Part shown: one piece after another, positions 20,398-26,283 of the stretch
Position numbering within the stretch: the stretch's first letter is position 1
How the letters are laid out: the number at the start of each line of letters is the position of its first letter
Assembly (NCBI GenBank): GCA_964346555.1
Contig: CAYFVJ010000001.1
Span: 4,779 to 68,778 of the forward strand
Origin: an uncultured Alteromonadaceae bacterium
GTDB taxonomy: Bacteria; Pseudomonadota; Gammaproteobacteria; Pseudomonadales; Halieaceae
Reading direction: 5' to 3'
Length of the DNA stretch: 64,000 bases
Position numbers and translations under genes: made by a program
Notes under the pieces: generated by a model
Databases searched by the model: none
Told to the model about the DNA's origin: nothing
The model's input: only the letters and a program-made list of their open reading frames with translations

Positions 20398-21898
20398 TCC
20401 GGCACTGAGCGCGCTATTGCCCCCGGCGCTGGTGGCCAGTTCCCTGCTGCCGGGCCTGATTATCTTTACGCTGGCTGAAGAGAGTGTTCGCCTGCGTACG
20501 GCGCTGAATCTGGTCGGTGCACTGTCCAAGCTTCTGCTGGTCGGCTTGATGCTCTGGGGGGTGTATCGCGAGCTCGACTTTGAGGCCCGGTTCGAGTTGC
20601 TGCCCGGTCTCCCGCTGGTGCTGCGTGTAGACGCCCTGGCTCTGTTATTCATTACGCTGTCGGCGCAGCTGTGGTTCCTGACCACGATATATGCGGTCGG
20701 ATACCTCGAGGAGTCGCCCCACAGGAGCCGCTTTTTCGGTTTCTTCAGTCTCTGCGTTACCGCGACGGTCGGGGTCGCCATGGCCGGCAACCTGCTGACG
20801 TTCATTCTGTTTTACGAAATGCTGACGTTGTCTACTTATCCACTTGTCGTGCATCGGGGAACGCCGGTCGCGCGACGGGCCGGCGAGGTCTATCTGCTGT
20901 ACACGGTGTTCGGTGGCGTGCTGCTTCTGCTCGGCACCGTCTGGCTCTACACGCTGACGGGTACGCTGGAGTTTCAACCCCAGGGGGTTGTCAGTGGTCT
21001 GGGGCAGGAGTACCACGCCGCGCTTATTGCGATCTTCGTACTGCTGATCGGCGGGTTGGGGGTAAAAGCGGCACTGTTGCCGCTACACGGCTGGCTGCCA
21101 AAGGCGATGGTCGCGCCGGCACCGGTCAGCGCTTTGCTGCACGCGGTCGCCGTGGTCAAAGCGGGCGCGTTCGGTATTATTCGCGTCGTCTACGATATTT
21201 TCGGTATTCAGTTCGCCGCGGGACTCGGCGTGATGATGCCCTTGGCCTGGCTGGCGAGCGCAACGATTCTGTATGGGTCGGTGCGCGCGCTGTTTCAGGA
21301 TGACCTCAAGCGACGTCTTGCCTATTCGACGGTGAGCCAGGTTGCCTACATTGCTCTGGGTGTGGCACTGGTGGGCCCGATCGCGAGTATCGGCGGGCTG
21401 GTACACCTAGTTCACCAGGGGTTGATGAAGATCACCCTGTTTTTCTGTGCCGGCAATCTCGCGGAGACACTGGGTATCCACAAGATCAGTGAAATGAACG
21501 GCGTGGGCCGGCGCATGCCGTGGACCATGGCAGCTTTTACCGTGGCGGCGCTGGGCATGATCGGCGTACCGCCGATAGCCGGATTCATCAGCAAGTGGTA
21601 CCTGGGGCTGGGCGCCATGGAGGTGGGCGCCGACTGGGTGCTGCTGGTGCTCGCCGGGAGCAGTGCCCTGAACGCCATGTATTTCCTGCCCATCGTCTAT
21701 CGCGCCTGGTTTCTCGATGTCGCGGACGAGTGGCCGCAGGAACGTCACTACCCGCGCGCGGAGACCTCGCTTGCCCTGCTGCTGCCGCCGCTGGTGACAG
21801 CGGCACTGGCGCTGATGGTCGGGTTGCTCGCCTCGGTACCCTACAGTCCCCAGGAGTGGGCCAAGCTGGTAGTAATGAGGGAGTTTGCCGCGCCGTGA
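20390..21898 (+). CDS. Mrp/Mnh antiporter subunit D-like (NuoM/L-like), copy 2
   Basis: 502 aa from ATG 20390 (8-nt overlap with copy 1; the ORF opens at GTG 20363). It has the signature LHGWLPKAMVAPAPVSALLHAVAVVKAG. Confidence 0.85.
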   Translation: MIDPALSALLPPALVASSLLPGLIIFTLAEESVRLRTALNLVGALSKLLLVGLMLWGVYRELDFEARFELLPGLPLVLRVDALALLFITLSAQLWFLTTIYAVGYLEESPHRSRFFGFFSLCVTATVGVAMAGNLLTFILFYEMLTLSTYPLVVHRGTPVARRAGEVYLLYTVFGGVLLLLGTVWLYTLTGTLEFQPQGVVSGLGQEYHAALIAIFVLLIGGLGVKAALLPLHGWLPKAMVAPAPVSALLHAVAVVKAGAFGIIRVVYDIFGIQFAAGLGVMMPLAWLASATILYGSVRALFQDDLKRRLAYSTVSQVAYIALGVALVGPIASIGGLVHLVHQGLMKITLFFCAGNLAETLGIHKISEMNGVGRRMPWTMAAFTVAALGMIGVPPIAGFISKWYLGLGAMEVGADWVLLVLAGSSALNAMYFLPIVYRAWFLDVADEWPQERHYPRAETSLALLLPPLVTAALALMVGLLASVPYSPQEWAKLVVMREFAAP

Positions 21899-22821
21899 TA
21901 GTCGAGTTGCCGCTGGATATCGTTCTGCTCGGCAGCCGGCTGGGGGCGGGACCGCTGGAGGTTGCCGCACTGGCTGTCGTTACGCTCCTATGGCTCCTGT
22001 TCGGCGTGTGGTTATGGCGTAGTTCCGCCTCCGCCCGGCCGGGTCTGCTGGCGGTGTTCTACGTCCTGCCCGCAACCGGCCTGATTACGGCGTCGCTGGC
22101 GCAGGATGCAGCGCTCTTTTACGCGGGGCTTGCGGCCGCAGGCTACGGCAGCCTCGCGGCGCTGCTCCTAGCGCATGGCGCGGGTCACTCGCGCACCGCG
22201 GCAGCCCAGGCCACGCTACTCGTGCTCAGTGACCTCATCCTGTTCGAGCTGTTCGTCTACCTGTACGCCGAGGCGCAGACTGTGGCATTTGACGGTTTGC
22301 GCGCGGCCTATGCGGATCGGGGCAGTGGGCTGACCTTCGTCGCTGGATTGCTGATCTTCGCCGCGGGCAGCAGGATTGCCGCACTGTTTCTGCTTTTGCC
22401 GCTGTCAGCGGGGCTGCCCGCGTGGCGCATGGGCACCGCCTCGGCACTCGGCGCGACCGCTGTAGTCGCAGGCCCACTGCTTGTCGTGCGGATCGTCGAT
22501 CCTTCGTTTGCGACATCCGCTGCCCGATATACGCTGTCGGCAATGCTCGGTGCAGCGCTTGCGCTGTACTTGCTCGCTGTCATCTTGGTCCGGTCGAGGG
22601 CGGGCATCGATGCATTCAAGCGGCAGCTGTCAGACACCGGGCAGCGAGGGCTGTCACCGGGTGTGGCCGTGCTGGCGCTGGCCGGCAATCTGTCGCAACG
22701 GCTCGCCCCGCGTGCGCGTTTGGCGGAGCGGGCACTATTATCCTGGCCGGTTGCCGTGACGCTTGCCAGCGTGTTGTCGCTGCTTCTGGCCTTCGCTTTT
22801 GGCAGCGCGGGCTCGGGCTGA
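21895..22821 (+). CDS. Ala/Leu-rich polytopic membrane protein of unknown function, last gene of the mrp operon
   Basis: GTG 21895 overlaps the upstream stop (GTGA). It is 308 aa with about 8 hydrophobic segments, and I could not see an antiporter-subunit signature. The coding call rests on the translational coupling and the hydrophobicity pattern. Confidence 0.55.
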   Translation: MIVELPLDIVLLGSRLGAGPLEVAALAVVTLLWLLFGVWLWRSSASARPGLLAVFYVLPATGLITASLAQDAALFYAGLAAAGYGSLAALLLAHGAGHSRTAAAQATLLVLSDLILFELFVYLYAEAQTVAFDGLRAAYADRGSGLTFVAGLLIFAAGSRIAALFLLLPLSAGLPAWRMGTASALGATAVVAGPLLVVRIVDPSFATSAARYTLSAMLGAALALYLLAVILVRSRAGIDAFKRQLSDTGQRGLSPGVAVLALAGNLSQRLAPRARLAERALLSWPVAVTLASVLSLLLAFAFGSAGSG

Positions 22822-22921: not shown

Positions 22922-24220
22922 TCAGTCAACCAGTGCCTGATAGACCAGCGACCTGAACTGGTCGGCGAGCTGCGTCTGGTGCGGAACACTCTGGGTCATG
23001 AAGATGGCGACCATCTCCTCGCTGGGGTCGACCCAGAAGCGTGTGCCCGCGGCGCCGCCCCAGCCGTAGCTGCCCGGTGAGCCGATTTCCCCGCTGACGC
23101 CGGGGTCGACGGTTACCGCGACGCCGAGGCCGAAGCCTTCAACCCCGGTCAGAACCTGCGCATCGATGCCGGCCAGGTGGTTGCGGCGCATGTGCTCCAC
23201 GGTGCGGGGCGACAGAAGACGCGCGCCATCCAGCTCGCCGCCGTTCAGCAGCATCTGACTGAAGCGCAGGTAGTCGTCGGTTGAGGAGACGAGTCCGGCG
23301 CCGCCACTGGCAAAATAGCCGCCGTCAACGAAGGGTTCGGTGAGGCGCGGATCGGCGACTTCCAGTACCTGTTTCTGGCTGCTCTGCCAGGGTTCGTTCC
23401 AGCTGATCTGCGTTCCTTCGGGGGAATAGAGCTGCGCCAGTCGCGACACGTCGCTCGCTGGCAGGACGAACGCGGTGTCCTGCATCCCCAGCGGCTCGAA
23501 AATACGTTTTCTGAGGAATTCCGCAAACGGCATGTCGGAAAGTACTTCCACCAGGCGGCCCTGGAGATCTACCGCGACGCTGTAATGCCAGCGCGTGCCG
23601 GGATCGTACTGCAGCGGCAGTCCGGACAGCCGTTTGCTGAAAGTCTCGAGGTCCGCTGATTGCAGCAGCCCCGCCTCGCGGTAGGCGCGATCGACCGCGG
23701 TATCGCCGAATACGCCGTAGGTCATCCCGGCGGTATGGCGCATCAGGTCGCGCACGGTCGGCGCACGCGCTGGTTCGCGCAGTATTGGCGTGCCGTCGCT
23801 ATCGAGATCATCCAGAACCTGGAGGCCGGCGAACGCCGGCAGGTATCGCGCCAGTGGATCATTGAGCTGGAAGCGTCCCTCCTCATACAGCATCATCATG
23901 GCGACCGCCGTGATCGGCTTGGTCATGGAATAGATGCGGTAGAGCGTATCCTGTGACATCGGCTCGCCGGCCTCGCGATCGCTCATGCCCCAGGTCTGGC
24001 GCCAGGCAATGCGGCCGCGCCGTGCGATCAGGGCTTCTCCGCCAACCATGATGCCGTCTTCCACGGCGCGCTGCATGTGGGCGTCGATCCGTGAGAGCCG
24101 CTGTGCTGAAAATCCGAGCGCTGAAGGCTCGCCGACCGGCAGGGCCTGGCCCGCGGCACCGGTAGTGATAGTCCAGAGGAGTACAGAAAAAATCCAGTAG
24201 CGTGCGTGGCTTTTTTGCAT
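22922..24220 (-). CDS. exported serine hydrolase, beta-lactamase/transpeptidase-like fold (class C / EstB-like)
   Basis: 432 aa with a signal-like N-terminus (YWIFSVLLWTITTGAAGQA), the S-x-x-K motif in IYSMTKPITAV, and a later HYSV and WGGAAG. It starts 3 nt after the GATase stop. Confidence 0.8.
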   Translation of the reverse strand: MQKSHARYWIFSVLLWTITTGAAGQALPVGEPSALGFSAQRLSRIDAHMQRAVEDGIMVGGEALIARRGRIAWRQTWGMSDREAGEPMSQDTLYRIYSMTKPITAVAMMMLYEEGRFQLNDPLARYLPAFAGLQVLDDLDSDGTPILREPARAPTVRDLMRHTAGMTYGVFGDTAVDRAYREAGLLQSADLETFSKRLSGLPLQYDPGTRWHYSVAVDLQGRLVEVLSDMPFAEFLRKRIFEPLGMQDTAFVLPASDVSRLAQLYSPEGTQISWNEPWQSSQKQVLEVADPRLTEPFVDGGYFASGGAGLVSSTDDYLRFSQMLLNGGELDGARLLSPRTVEHMRRNHLAGIDAQVLTGVEGFGLGVAVTVDPGVSGEIGSPGSYGWGGAAGTRFWVDPSEEMVAIFMTQSVPHQTQLADQFRSLVYQALVD

Positions 24221-24223
24221 TAC

Positions 24224-24964
24224 CTATGCCTTGTCTGTGCGGCGGTTGTCGAAAGCATCGAAGCCATCCCGCCTGCTTGCGGTGCTCTCGTGAGGCGTCG
24301 GTTGAGCTCCGCTCAAAAGGTAGCGGAACAGGGCGCGTTGCGACGGTAAATATAACAGGTACTCGGGATGCCATTGCACCCCGATGATACGCCTCTCATT
24401 GTCTGACTCGATGGCCTGTACCAGACTGTCCAGATCTCTGCCGACGACTTTCAAGCCCTGCGCCGATTCGTGAATTGCCTGGTGGTGCAGGCTGTTGACG
24501 CGCAGACGCTGGCGGCCACAGATACCCGAAATGCGTGAGTGCGGCAGCAGTGTCACGGTCTTGGTCGGCAGCAGGCCGGGCCGGTTGTGCGTCTTGTGGC
24601 GCATGCTGCGGATGTCCTGGTGCAGGTTGCCACCCAGTACGACGTTGATCAGTTGTGCGCCGCGACAGATGCCCAGTAGCGGCTTGTTATTGTCGAGAGC
24701 ATAGCGAATCCAGCGGATTTCGAGGGCGTCGCGGGCCTTGTCGGTTTTTACCGGTTCGCGGATGTCGCCCTGGTAGTGCTCCGGCCCGATATCGTTACCG
24801 CCGCCGATCACCAGCGCATCGAAATCAACTTCGTCAGTGCCGTGGCGAGTGCTGATACGCACGGCTCGCGCGCCCGCCATCCAGAGTGCCAGGCGGGTAC
24901 ACCACCAGGCCGGCGCCCAGCGACGGGCGGCTCCGGTTACGCCAACCCGCGGTCGCGCAGCCAT
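24224..24964 (-). CDS. class I glutamine amidotransferase-like / peptidase C26 gamma-glutamyl hydrolase (PuuD-like)
   Basis: 246 aa with the nucleophile elbow LLGICRGAQLINV and GVQWHPEYL (His-Glu). Its ATG lies 28 nt inside the amidoligase 3' end. Confidence 0.85.
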   Translation of the reverse strand: MAARPRVGVTGAARRWAPAWWCTRLALWMAGARAVRISTRHGTDEVDFDALVIGGGNDIGPEHYQGDIREPVKTDKARDALEIRWIRYALDNNKPLLGICRGAQLINVVLGGNLHQDIRSMRHKTHNRPGLLPTKTVTLLPHSRISGICGRQRLRVNSLHHQAIHESAQGLKVVGRDLDSLVQAIESDNERRIIGVQWHPEYLLYLPSQRALFRYLLSGAQPTPHESTASRRDGFDAFDNRRTDKA

Positions 24965-25920
24965 CCGTCCATGTACTCCACCCAGCTGTTGCGCTTGACG
25001 CCAAGCAATACGCGATGCTGGTCGAGGTAGCGGGCGGCGAGTTCGGACAGTTCTTCAGGTCGCTGCGCCAGCTCATCCACGGACCACCACACGTTCCAGC
25101 TGTCTGCCAGGGACCAGCCCACGCGATCGATGTGACAGTTGGGCAGTCGATAGTGAAAAGTCGGTCGCGCCTTGATGCGCCGGTCCGGAACGCTGTCCTG
25201 CACTGCGTGCTCATCCAGCTCACTGAGCAGCGGCAACATGTCGAGTGCCCGGTTGCGACTCGGGTTGTGCTGCAGGTAATCGGCGATCAACTGATCCAAC
25301 GGGGGCGCCTGCGCCGTCGAAAACAGATGACGCAGGTAGGCCTCGGGATACAGATCCACGTAAGTGCTGGCGCGCCGCGTCAGGTCGACCTCGTGCGACT
25401 GCACCAGCCACCACTGCAACAGGCCGAAGGCCCTCAGGTAATTCCACACAGTGGCACTGTCCAGAGCGGGGCTGCGAGGGTTAATGTGCACACCATAGGC
25501 GGCGATGACTGAACTGGCGGTGCCTACTGCGCCGGCTTCGCGCAGTGCGTCTGTCAGAGGTCGCAGTGAGTGCAGCCGGTCTACGGCAACGGGCGGACAG
25601 ACAATCTCTACCGGTACCACGAGCTCTGCTGCCTGGGAGAGCAGACCCACCCATTCGTCTGCGGGTGTGTCACCTGCTTCTTCCGCCTGCCGTTTCAGGA
25701 ATTCCCAGTCCAGTTCAATGCCGAAGCGGCCGAGGCCGTCGATATCCAGGTCGCAGGCTGCGGCTGTCTGGTTGTGCCGGGTGGTTGTATAGACGCTTTC
25801 CAGGGCAGTAATTGTGTCGGCCAGGGACACGCCCGCGAACTCGATTTCAAAACCAACCGTACGCACGCTTCCCGTTTCATCGCAGCGGGCGCTGGGTTGC
25901 CTGAATTCACTGACAGCCAC
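24937..25920 (-). CDS. amidoligase family protein (glutamine-synthetase-like fold, Amidoligase_2-type)
   Basis: It has the motifs VGFEIEFAG, VPVEIVCPP and YGVHINP. The ORF extends to ATG 26019, but that would overlap the small upstream gene, so GTG 25920 is the preferred start. The start is uncertain. Confidence 0.7.
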   Translation of the reverse strand: MAVSEFRQPSARCDETGSVRTVGFEIEFAGVSLADTITALESVYTTTRHNQTAAACDLDIDGLGRFGIELDWEFLKRQAEEAGDTPADEWVGLLSQAAELVVPVEIVCPPVAVDRLHSLRPLTDALREAGAVGTASSVIAAYGVHINPRSPALDSATVWNYLRAFGLLQWWLVQSHEVDLTRRASTYVDLYPEAYLRHLFSTAQAPPLDQLIADYLQHNPSRNRALDMLPLLSELDEHAVQDSVPDRRIKARPTFHYRLPNCHIDRVGWSLADSWNVWWSVDELAQRPEELSELAARYLDQHRVLLGVKRNSWVEYMDGWLRDRGLA

Positions 25921-25933
25921 GTATGAGCCCGGC

Positions 25934-26113
25934 TCAGCCCTTCGGACCGAAAAGGAACCACGCCAGCAGGCCGAACAGGGGCAGGACCAGGATAACCAGT
26001 GTCCAAATGACCTTGGCACCGGTTCCCGCAGAACTCTGTACCGTCTTGATAATCGCGTAGATAGCCAGGGCCAGCCAGATCAGTCCCAGCAGCCCACCTG
26101 TTTCAATGCCCAT
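25934..26113 (-). CDS. small 2-TM membrane protein, PLDc_N (phospholipase-D-like N-terminal) type
   Basis: This ORF is not in the supplied track (59 aa). My own translation is MGIETGGLLGLIWLALAIYAIIKTVQSSAGTGAKVIWTLVILVLPLFGLLAWFLFGPKG. The KxIWxLVILxxPxxGxLxWxLFG pattern is typical of this family. Confidence 0.6.
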   Translation of the reverse strand: MGIETGGLLGLIWLALAIYAIIKTVQSSAGTGAKVIWTLVILVLPLFGLLAWFLFGPKG

Positions 26114-26283
26114 AATTTTTGCCTGTGATATTCCCGCCGAGTTTCAGGATACCAGAAGTCGCTAGCATTGGGGCTGCGCACGTTCTTGCTCGTGCCGGAA
26201 CAATGTGTGTAACAACGCGGTTTCTGGCATCACCAGGCGGCCTTGGGTAGACTGACGGTTGAGTCAAGCACGCGAGATTCAAC

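Follow-up and report, generated by a model that had tools for sequence, protein, structure and literature searches.

The 64,000-nucleotide stretch of DNA analyzed here (the window), from an uncultured Alteromonadaceae bacterium placed by GTDB in the Halieaceae (GCA_964346555.1, contig CAYFVJ010000001.1), carries a cluster of four genes on its minus strand at positions 22922-26113. The core of the cluster is an amidoligase gene that overlaps a gene for a Cys-His-Glu amidohydrolase of the Peptidase_C26 family (C26). With moderate confidence, we read these two genes as a translationally coupled gamma-glutamyl-type ligase/hydrolase module that is probably membrane-associated. A first-pass annotation, made by a model from the letters alone, had proposed a four-gene operon. 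Judged by its conservation across genomes, the predicted functional unit is the two-gene amidoligase-C26 module and not the four-gene operon. The features of the cluster are as follows (nt, nucleotides; aa, amino acids; TM, transmembrane).

24937-25920, minus strand: Amidoligase_2 carboxylate-amine ligase of 327 aa with a GTG start (PF12224), core gene 1
24224-24964, minus strand: Peptidase_C26/class I GATase-like Cys-His-Glu amidohydrolase of 246 aa (PF07722, PF00117), core gene 2
24937-24964, minus strand: out-of-frame overlap of 28 nt between the amidoligase 3' end and the C26 5' end, read from the sequence
25934-26113, minus strand: small PLDc_N membrane protein of 59 aa with two TM segments (PF13396 and two hydrophobic segments)
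22922-24220, minus strand: exported beta-lactamase-fold (family VIII esterase-like) serine hydrolase of 432 aa (PF00144)
26114-26283, no strand assigned: divergent intergenic region of 170 nt between the PLDc_N gene and moaC, presumed promoter site

Conservation of the Amidoligase-C26 Pair

A profile built from 25 amidoligase homologues identified at least 588 loci in species-representative genomes, and the best 80 of these (37-57% identity) were analyzed. They belong to Gamma-, Beta- and Deltaproteobacteria and to Thermodesulfobacteria. A C26 gene is found immediately downstream of the amidoligase, on the same strand, in 78 of the 80 loci. The two genes overlap in 76 of these 78, and in 58 the overlap is exactly 28 nt. 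The same length is seen in the window, where the C26 ATG (24964) sits 28 nt within the 3' end of the amidoligase gene, whose stop codon ends at 24937. This conserved overlap implies that amidoligase and C26 would be translationally coupled. Rhodobacterales plasmids also carry the pair, with an overlap of 4 nt. When searched against 1.84 billion representative proteins, the amidoligase profile matched 890 clusters at E <= 1e-3, and 425 clusters (50% identity) at E <= 1e-30. The long matches include polypeptides in which amidoligase and C26 are fused (P0330 and P0351). The other genes seen around the 80 loci (acyl-CoA synthetase, GNAT, MCP, M28 peptidase and regulators) are each limited to the synteny of one lineage.

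Domains and Catalytic Residues of the Core Proteins

Pfam profiles were searched against their curated cut-offs, and NCBIfam equivalog models were also scored. The four minus-strand genes named in the first-pass annotation (PLDc_N, amidoligase, C26/GATase and an SxxK hydrolase with a signal-like segment) are present as open reading frames (ORFs), and the Pfam calls for PF12224, PF07722, PF00144 and PF13396 all hold. The motifs that it had listed (GFEIEF, VEIVCPP, GVHINP, GICRG and WHPE) are all found in the translations, as is SMTK, and its readings of the 28-nt overlap and of the 3 nt between the C26 stop and the hydrolase start were correct.

The amidoligase matches PF12224 with 210.2 bits (cut-off 22; E 5.7e-62) across profile positions 3-245 of 245. 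It has no match among the NCBIfam models, and no glutamine synthetase (GS) family match was obtained in the Pfam and NCBIfam scoring. Residues E25/E27, E69/D71, E105, H145, R222/R224 and R258 are invariant in 25 sequences of 52-95% identity. By analogy only, these acidic, His and Arg residues (ExE, ExD, E, H, RxR and R) may bind metal and ATP. The ORF was listed as 24937-26019 (360 aa), a reading whose start at 26019 gives an 86-nt overlap with the PLDc_N gene. The GTG at 25920 was chosen as the start because the homologues are 326-330 aa long and align from it. The gene most likely spans 24937-25920 (327 aa), with its start 13 nt past the PLDc_N stop.

The C26 protein matches PF07722 with 157.6 bits (cut-off 20.5; E 5.3e-46) and the generic GATase profile PF00117 with 57 bits (E 2.7e-15), and its GATase_3 (PF07685) score of 17.1 bits is under the cut-off of 27. 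Its NCBIfam matches include models for PuuD and for gamma-glutamyl-CDP-amidate hydrolase. Of 84 homologues, at least 95% keep the catalytic triad C100/H199/E201 and the motif GGxDIxPxxY. Among proteins of solved structure, the C26 protein is closest to 3fij (Listeria Lin1909), 7d4r (a Pseudomonas 'probable glutamine amidotransferase') and PuuD (6vtv).

A VTT-Domain Membrane Protein as Third Partner

All ORFs around the 80 loci were clustered for recurrent neighbors. Besides C26, one further gene recurs. It lies directly after C26 and encodes a membrane protein of about 143 aa, which Pfam identifies as a VTT-domain protein of the DedA/YqaA family. Searches with a hidden Markov model (HMM) place it directly after C26 in 35 of the 80 loci, in many lineages. 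This third partner was not named in the first-pass annotation. Fusions of VTT and amidoligase are found among the long profile matches (P0300 and P0367), and the architecture occurs in at least nine clusters (90% identity) from Sandaracinus, Polyangiaceae and Myxococcales, which share 42-84% mutual identity and comprise up to 24 contigs each. In every case a C26 gene comes next and overlaps the VTT-amidoligase gene by 4 nt. Because the domain order in these fusions differs from the usual gene order, they are not frameshift artefacts. On account of the gene fusions, ligase, C26 hydrolase and VTT protein are predicted to act together, probably at the membrane.

Within the Halieaceae, the clade without the VTT gene is the clade that has PLDc_N upstream. 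It is conceivable that PLDc_N replaced VTT as the membrane partner, a reading that rests on a single evolutionary event. A bolder proposal, which we regard as quite unlikely, is that amidoligase, C26 and VTT form one membrane-bound machine that modifies a lipid head group, a lipid-linked envelope precursor or a transiting solute, either by glutamylation or by an amidation that depends on glutamine. In such a machine VTT would present or flip the substrate and PLDc_N would take its place in the window. If true, this would be the first time that a YqaA-type DedA protein is assigned a catalytic partner and that free-standing PLDc_N proteins are given a function.

Proposed Function of the Module

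Amidoligase_2 proteins are predicted to be ATP-dependent carboxylate-amine ligases of the glutamine-synthetase/glutamate-cysteine-ligase superfamily. The ligase would turn a carboxylate into an acyl-phosphate and join it to an amine or a small peptide; glutamate, through its gamma-carboxyl group, is the most likely donor. The C26 enzyme would cut the same kind of gamma-glutamyl amide, such that the pair may install and remove (or proof-read or recycle) a gamma-glutamyl handle. The chemistry is proposed to take place at the membrane, on a transported or lipid-associated substrate, because in many bacteria the module works with the VTT inner-membrane protein of the YqaA/DedA type. Handle-type couples built with unrelated ligases include PuuA/PuuD, FPGS/GGH and glutathionylspermidine synthetase/amidase.

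The ligase family has a published history (Iyer, Burroughs & Aravind 2008, Biol Direct 3:45). That paper described, in proteobacteria, a second family of carboxylate-amine ligases with a neighboring GATase-like thiol peptidase, predicted glutathione-like peptide or metabolite chemistry for it rather than protein tagging, and reported that the same ligase family is paired in Firmicutes with an Aig2 gamma-glutamyl cyclotransferase. The window locus has the same ligase family (now Pfam PF12224) and the same proteobacterial neighborhood, with no essential difference. The first-pass annotation had stated that such pairs were known from comparative genomics only, which agrees with the 2008 description and with the searchable literature, where no characterization was found. 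A Klebsiella 'amidoligase' paper concerns an ATP-grasp enzyme and is irrelevant here, and papers on vesicles and on thymidine hypermodification mention amidoligases only generically.

The gamma-glutamyl couple is preferred because both alternative partners of the ligase, C26 and the cyclotransferase of Firmicutes, cleave gamma-glutamyl amides, and because a cyclotransferase cannot donate ammonia. It is also supported by the C26 type of the hydrolase (157 bits versus 57 bits for the generic GATase profile) and by an aldehyde dehydrogenase gene next to the pair in one homologous locus. A functional parallel is PuuA/PuuD of E. coli, together with the related Pau/Spu, aniline and naphthylamine systems. 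These too pair an ATP-dependent ligase, there of the GS superfamily, with a Cys-His-Glu hydrolase of the C26 type, by which the gamma-glutamyl group is taken off again. PuuA is gamma-glutamylputrescine synthetase and PuuD is gamma-glutamyl-GABA hydrolase. The window ligase is not a PuuA-type glutamine synthetase, however, and has only distant GS fold similarity, and the C26 protein reaches 60.9 bits with the PuuD equivalog model NF008471, whose cut-off is 266. The window contains no oxidase or aldehyde dehydrogenase genes of a Puu pathway, and the neighbors of the cluster are moaC and mrp. Moreover, puuA and puuD are transcribed separately, in contrast to the overlap between the amidoligase and C26 genes. 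The Puu parallel drawn in the first-pass annotation is a functional analogy only.

Several points weigh against the gamma-glutamyl couple. The searchable literature yielded no biochemistry for any member of an amidoligase-C26 pair, and the 64-kb window contains no YqaA/VTT homologue. The AF2 model of the amidoligase (pLDDT 87.5) finds GS type III, YbdK, plant glutamate-cysteine ligase (GCL) and GS as its best PDB folds, all of them weak matches (E 0.01-0.15, TM-score ~0.3), and the amidoligase profile has no match to PDB sequences at E <= 1. With a weak GS/GCL fold match (E 0.01-0.07) and no sequence match to solved structures, glutamate as the carboxylate donor is only an analogy. Furthermore, no genes for intervening steps are conserved beside the pair in the 80 loci, so that a ligase and a hydrolase of the same bond in fixed stoichiometry would look futile. 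Tight coupling and fusion are also a hallmark of glutaminase-synthetase amidotransferases.

This last point leads to the main rival, which we hold to be unlikely. The pair could be a two-subunit glutamine-dependent amidotransferase, in which the C26/GATase subunit would hydrolyse glutamine and feed the ammonia to the amidoligase for the ATP-driven conversion of a carboxylate to a carboxamide. The analogy is with MurT/GatD and CTP synthase, with a GS-fold synthetase in place of theirs, and the substrate might be membrane- or lipid-linked and presented by VTT. The conserved 28-nt overlap, which implies equimolar synthesis, and the natural amidoligase-C26 fusions fit such an enzyme equally well as they fit the gamma-glutamyl couple. 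The triad is intact and the generic GATase profile is matched, enzymes of the GS superfamily natively take ammonia as nucleophile, and the lack of other conserved pathway genes nearby is what would be expected of a self-contained two-subunit enzyme. The profile scores point the other way, with C26 at 157.6 bits, GATase at 57 bits and GATase_3 at 17 bits, under its cut-off. The characterized members of the C26 family act on N5-substituted glutamines and are not known to serve as ammonia-channelling subunits, and the Firmicutes partner, a gamma-glutamyl cyclotransferase, is unable to supply ammonia. The fusions do not discriminate, since fusions of a synthetase with an amidase for the same bond exist (glutathionylspermidine synthetase/amidase). 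MurT/GatD, the lipid II amidotransferase, likewise has an ATP-dependent ligase subunit and a class I GATase subunit in one operon, and its complex acts on a membrane-bound substrate. MurT, however, has a Mur-ligase fold where the window protein is predicted to be GS-like, and the window pair does not belong with this system. GatD is a GATase of the CobB/CobQ type, and the window C26 protein is under the cut-off of that model.

A further alternative, to which we assign little probability, is modification of cell-envelope peptides. The ligase would add an amino acid to a peptidoglycan or envelope precursor, or amidate it, and hydrolases would remodel the product, as proposed for the phage cassette of amidoligase, GATase and cyclotransferase. 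The phage cassette (LUZ24-like and PA11-like phages and Pseudoalteromonas podoviruses) also has an Amidoligase_2-type ligase alongside a GATase-like enzyme, and it is hypothesized to modify peptidoglycan peptides. Phage 'amidoligases' are the closest viral structural relatives of the window protein (E 5e-5). This likeness is distant, at 10-14% identity, and tblastn gave no match in 50,697 phage records. The phage cassette carries a gamma-glutamyl cyclotransferase and an ATP-grasp enzyme, whereas the cellular module has neither and has the VTT membrane partner instead. Envelope chemistry would fit two Pseudomonadales loci without C26, in which a VanY-like M15 D,D-carboxypeptidase gene stands at the amidoligase start and a beta-lactamase-fold gene follows, and a CHAP-domain gene that precedes MFS, amidoligase and C26 in Qingshengfaniella. 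It would also fit the proposal that some DedA-family proteins recycle the undecaprenyl-phosphate lipid carrier. The supporting gene contexts are confined to single lineages, and the pair has no conserved neighbors for murein or envelope biosynthesis.

Contexts of the Pair in Single Lineages

In Sandaracinus-type loci (L100, L101 1667-9365; L104 3019-8776), which carry the VTT-amidoligase fusion and C26, genes for MscS, a DAGK_cat/YegS-like lipid kinase and LysR lie upstream of the module and a CDP-alcohol phosphatidyltransferase gene lies downstream. These lipid genes, found in a single lineage, could hint at phospholipid chemistry. On plasmid pDSHI02 of D. shibae (L091 2207-4801), folB, which encodes dihydroneopterin aldolase, is directly upstream of the pair. 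Two small single-TM ORFs are downstream of it, and a homocysteine S-methyltransferase gene is divergent. The folB context, in a strain amenable to genetics, could be a lead to pterins or folate polyglutamates. On a plasmid of Rhodobacterales strain SC52, an aldehyde dehydrogenase gene adjoins the pair, an arrangement that resembles the Puu pathway. On a Qingshengfaniella plasmid (L096), the CHAP-domain gene is followed by a longer, unrelated MFS gene, the amidoligase and C26. The two Pseudomonadales metagenome-assembled genomes (MAGs) without C26 (L078 7276-11418; L080 6401-10278) encode a divergent amidoligase (VVFPPID versus VVCPPI). In both, the VanY-like M15 D,D-carboxypeptidase gene precedes the amidoligase, with an overlap of its start in L078, and the beta-lactamase-fold gene after it encodes a cytoplasmic protein. 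In L078 a flavin monooxygenase gene lies between the last two. The Rhodobacterales, Pseudomonadales and Sandaracinus-type contexts are leads only, and none recurs across lineages.

The Outer Genes of the Cluster

The PLDc_N protein matches PF13396 with 44.3 bits (cut-off 23.3; E 1.7e-11) and contains two hydrophobic segments, as in a two-TM hairpin. The hydrolase matches PF00144 with 247 bits (E 3.3e-73) and has a hydrophobic, signal-like N-terminal segment, an SxxK motif in the form SMTK and a GWGG motif. It scores 52.5 bits with the NCBIfam model bla_class_C, whose cut-off is 415, and it is under the cut-off of all named class C beta-lactamase and AcmB models. In the PDB it is most similar to family VIII carboxylesterases (7uda, 7pp3, 4ivi and 1ci8; E 1e-88 to 1e-92), with 300-314 bits over residues ~22-430 for 7uda, 7pp3 and 4ivi. 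The match to this family (EstB, EstU1 and Est-Y29) is full-length, with shared SxxK (SMTK) and GWGG motifs, and the window protein differs in its signal-like N-terminus. Judged by its closest solved relatives, the hydrolase appears family VIII carboxylesterase-like and not peptidase-like, and esterase activity is predicted.

The four-gene system of the first-pass annotation was weighed at this point. The exported hydrolase would release or process the substrate in the periplasm and PLDc_N would be the membrane component of the same pathway, a reading that now seems very improbable. The genes are co-oriented and tightly spaced (13-nt gap, 28-nt overlap and 3-nt gap), and no terminator-like minus-strand site lies inside the cluster. 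Close relatives of 72-76% amidoligase identity, among them C. halotolerans, have the order MFS-PLDc_N-amidoligase-C26-hydrolase between moaC and mrp, and the four-gene order persists throughout the Chromatocurvus clade, even where amidoligase identity falls to 72%. PLDc_N appears to be under very strong constraint. It is the best-conserved gene of the cluster, with 86-100% identity among Chromatocurvus-clade relatives versus 72-95% for the ligase. Its presence in exactly the clade that lost VTT could mean that one membrane partner was replaced by another. In addition, a hydrolase gene is retained downstream of amidoligase-C26-VTT in Pseudohaliea and in two MAGs; the order in Pseudohaliea rubra is MFS-amidoligase-C26-VTT-hydrolase.

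The wider comparison speaks against this system. PLDc_N was found near the amidoligase in none of the 80 loci by tblastn and a dedicated HMM, and it stands beside the pair only in the Chromatocurvus-like clade. The beta-lactamase-fold gene (>60% identity) is near the amidoligase in 2 of the 80 loci (L010 and L024), whose flanks are syntenic with the window and which therefore belong to the same Halieaceae lineage. The window hydrolase is 76% identical to a Chromatocurvus halotolerans protein and 57-60% identical to proteins of Congregibacter, Pseudohaliea and NOR5-3. The flanks of the cluster are alanine symporter-yajC-bcp-nudix-flavin reductase-moaEDC on one side and an mrp-type antiporter on the other, and they are syntenic with the hydrolase-bearing relatives. 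Identity and synteny place the window in a gammaproteobacterium of the Halieaceae that is close to Chromatocurvus. All genomes that show the arrangement have the same flanks, moaCDE on one side and in several of them mrp on the other, and the shared gene order therefore counts as one evolutionary event. In NOR5-3, a hydrolase orthologue (59%) adjoins this moaCDE block as well, next to an amine oxidase gene and without amidoligase-C26, and the pair is on a different scaffold (L037). The amidoligase loci of Congregibacter and NOR5-3 have no hydrolase. The resemblance of the hydrolase to family VIII carboxylesterases is a further point against it.

Because the NOR5-3 orthologue keeps its position on the moaCDE side without the pair, the hydrolase would most simply be a positional neighbor and not a conserved partner. 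These arrangements are most simply explained by a hydrolase gene that was there first and an amidoligase module that later entered between it and moaC. In this genome PLDc_N and the hydrolase probably share a transcript with the pair, as clade-specific additions or neighbors. The co-conservation of the four-gene unit did not hold beyond the amidoligase-C26 pair. The amide ligation and hydrolysis cycle proposed in the first-pass annotation is reasonable in view of the overlapping, conserved pair and its fusions; its coupling to a periplasmic hydrolase finds no support outside a single syntenic lineage.

The 3-nt spacing between the C26 stop (24224) and the hydrolase ATG (24220) also appears to be recent. 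C26 homologues are typically 220-228 aa long, and the window protein has a C-terminal extension of about 22 aa relative to most of them. The extension (24224-24290) is common only to the window and its 95%-identical relative L097 (3653-4396), with lengths of 246-247 aa, and the extended gene reaches or overlaps the hydrolase start. Other relatives end at 222-224 aa, and in most a gap of ~35-60 nt remains before the hydrolase gene, which counts against a four-gene system. Comparison of these sequences indicates that a C26 stop codon was recently lost, which tightened the C26/hydrolase junction.

Local Context of the Cluster

Scans for sigma-70 promoters and intrinsic terminators found none on the minus strand, and matches were fewer than in shuffled sequences. 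The idea of a riboswitch or leader ahead of the module was dropped: at E <= 1 Rfam had no hit in this region of the window, and eight diverse loci likewise gave none at the gathering thresholds. The intergenic region 26114-26283 presumably holds the promoter. The same site is occupied in several relatives by the gene for a 436-aa MFS transporter, which precedes the module in L081-L087, L090, L098 and L010 (Chromatocurvus, Pseudohaliea and related MAGs), for instance at L081 4429-5739, L086 2750-4060 and L090 2547-3857. The MFS gene is not present at that site in the window, L097 or L024. As a general partner the MFS transporter was rejected, being found only in the Halieaceae lineage and, at an unrelated length, on one Rhodobacterales plasmid.

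The idea that other lineages have a recurrent small membrane ORF ahead of the amidoligase was also dismissed, as only spurious ORFs and one YqaE/Pmp3-type gene were found. The latter, in a Geopsychrobacteraceae MAG (L025, about 2693-2875), encodes a 60-aa two-TM protein just upstream of the amidoligase that is unrelated to PLDc_N. On the other side of the cluster, a hydrophobic ORF without a Pfam match (21520-22821, plus strand, true start probably near 21895) closes the mrp-type antiporter operon and converges on the hydrolase gene. All Chromatocurvus-clade relatives have homologues of 304-315 aa at the same position, also without a Pfam match.

Significance

The domain pair and its neighborhood were already published in 2008, and the window locus is an ordinary member of the family with clade-specific neighbors. 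As far as could be checked, what is new is the conserved 28-nt overlap, the YqaA/VTT partner, the VTT-amidoligase and amidoligase-C26 fusions, and the clade-specific PLDc_N, MFS and esterase neighbors. The pair is widespread and is found in marine Gammaproteobacteria, Betaproteobacteria, sulfate reducers, Rhodobacterales plasmids and Myxococcota. The experimental target is narrowed from four genes to two, with a YqaA/DedA-type protein as a likely third component, and the VTT partner directs assays to membrane-associated or transported substrates. A solved function would annotate hundreds of genomes, and it could open the YqaA branch of the DedA superfamily, which is poorly understood, to biochemical study.

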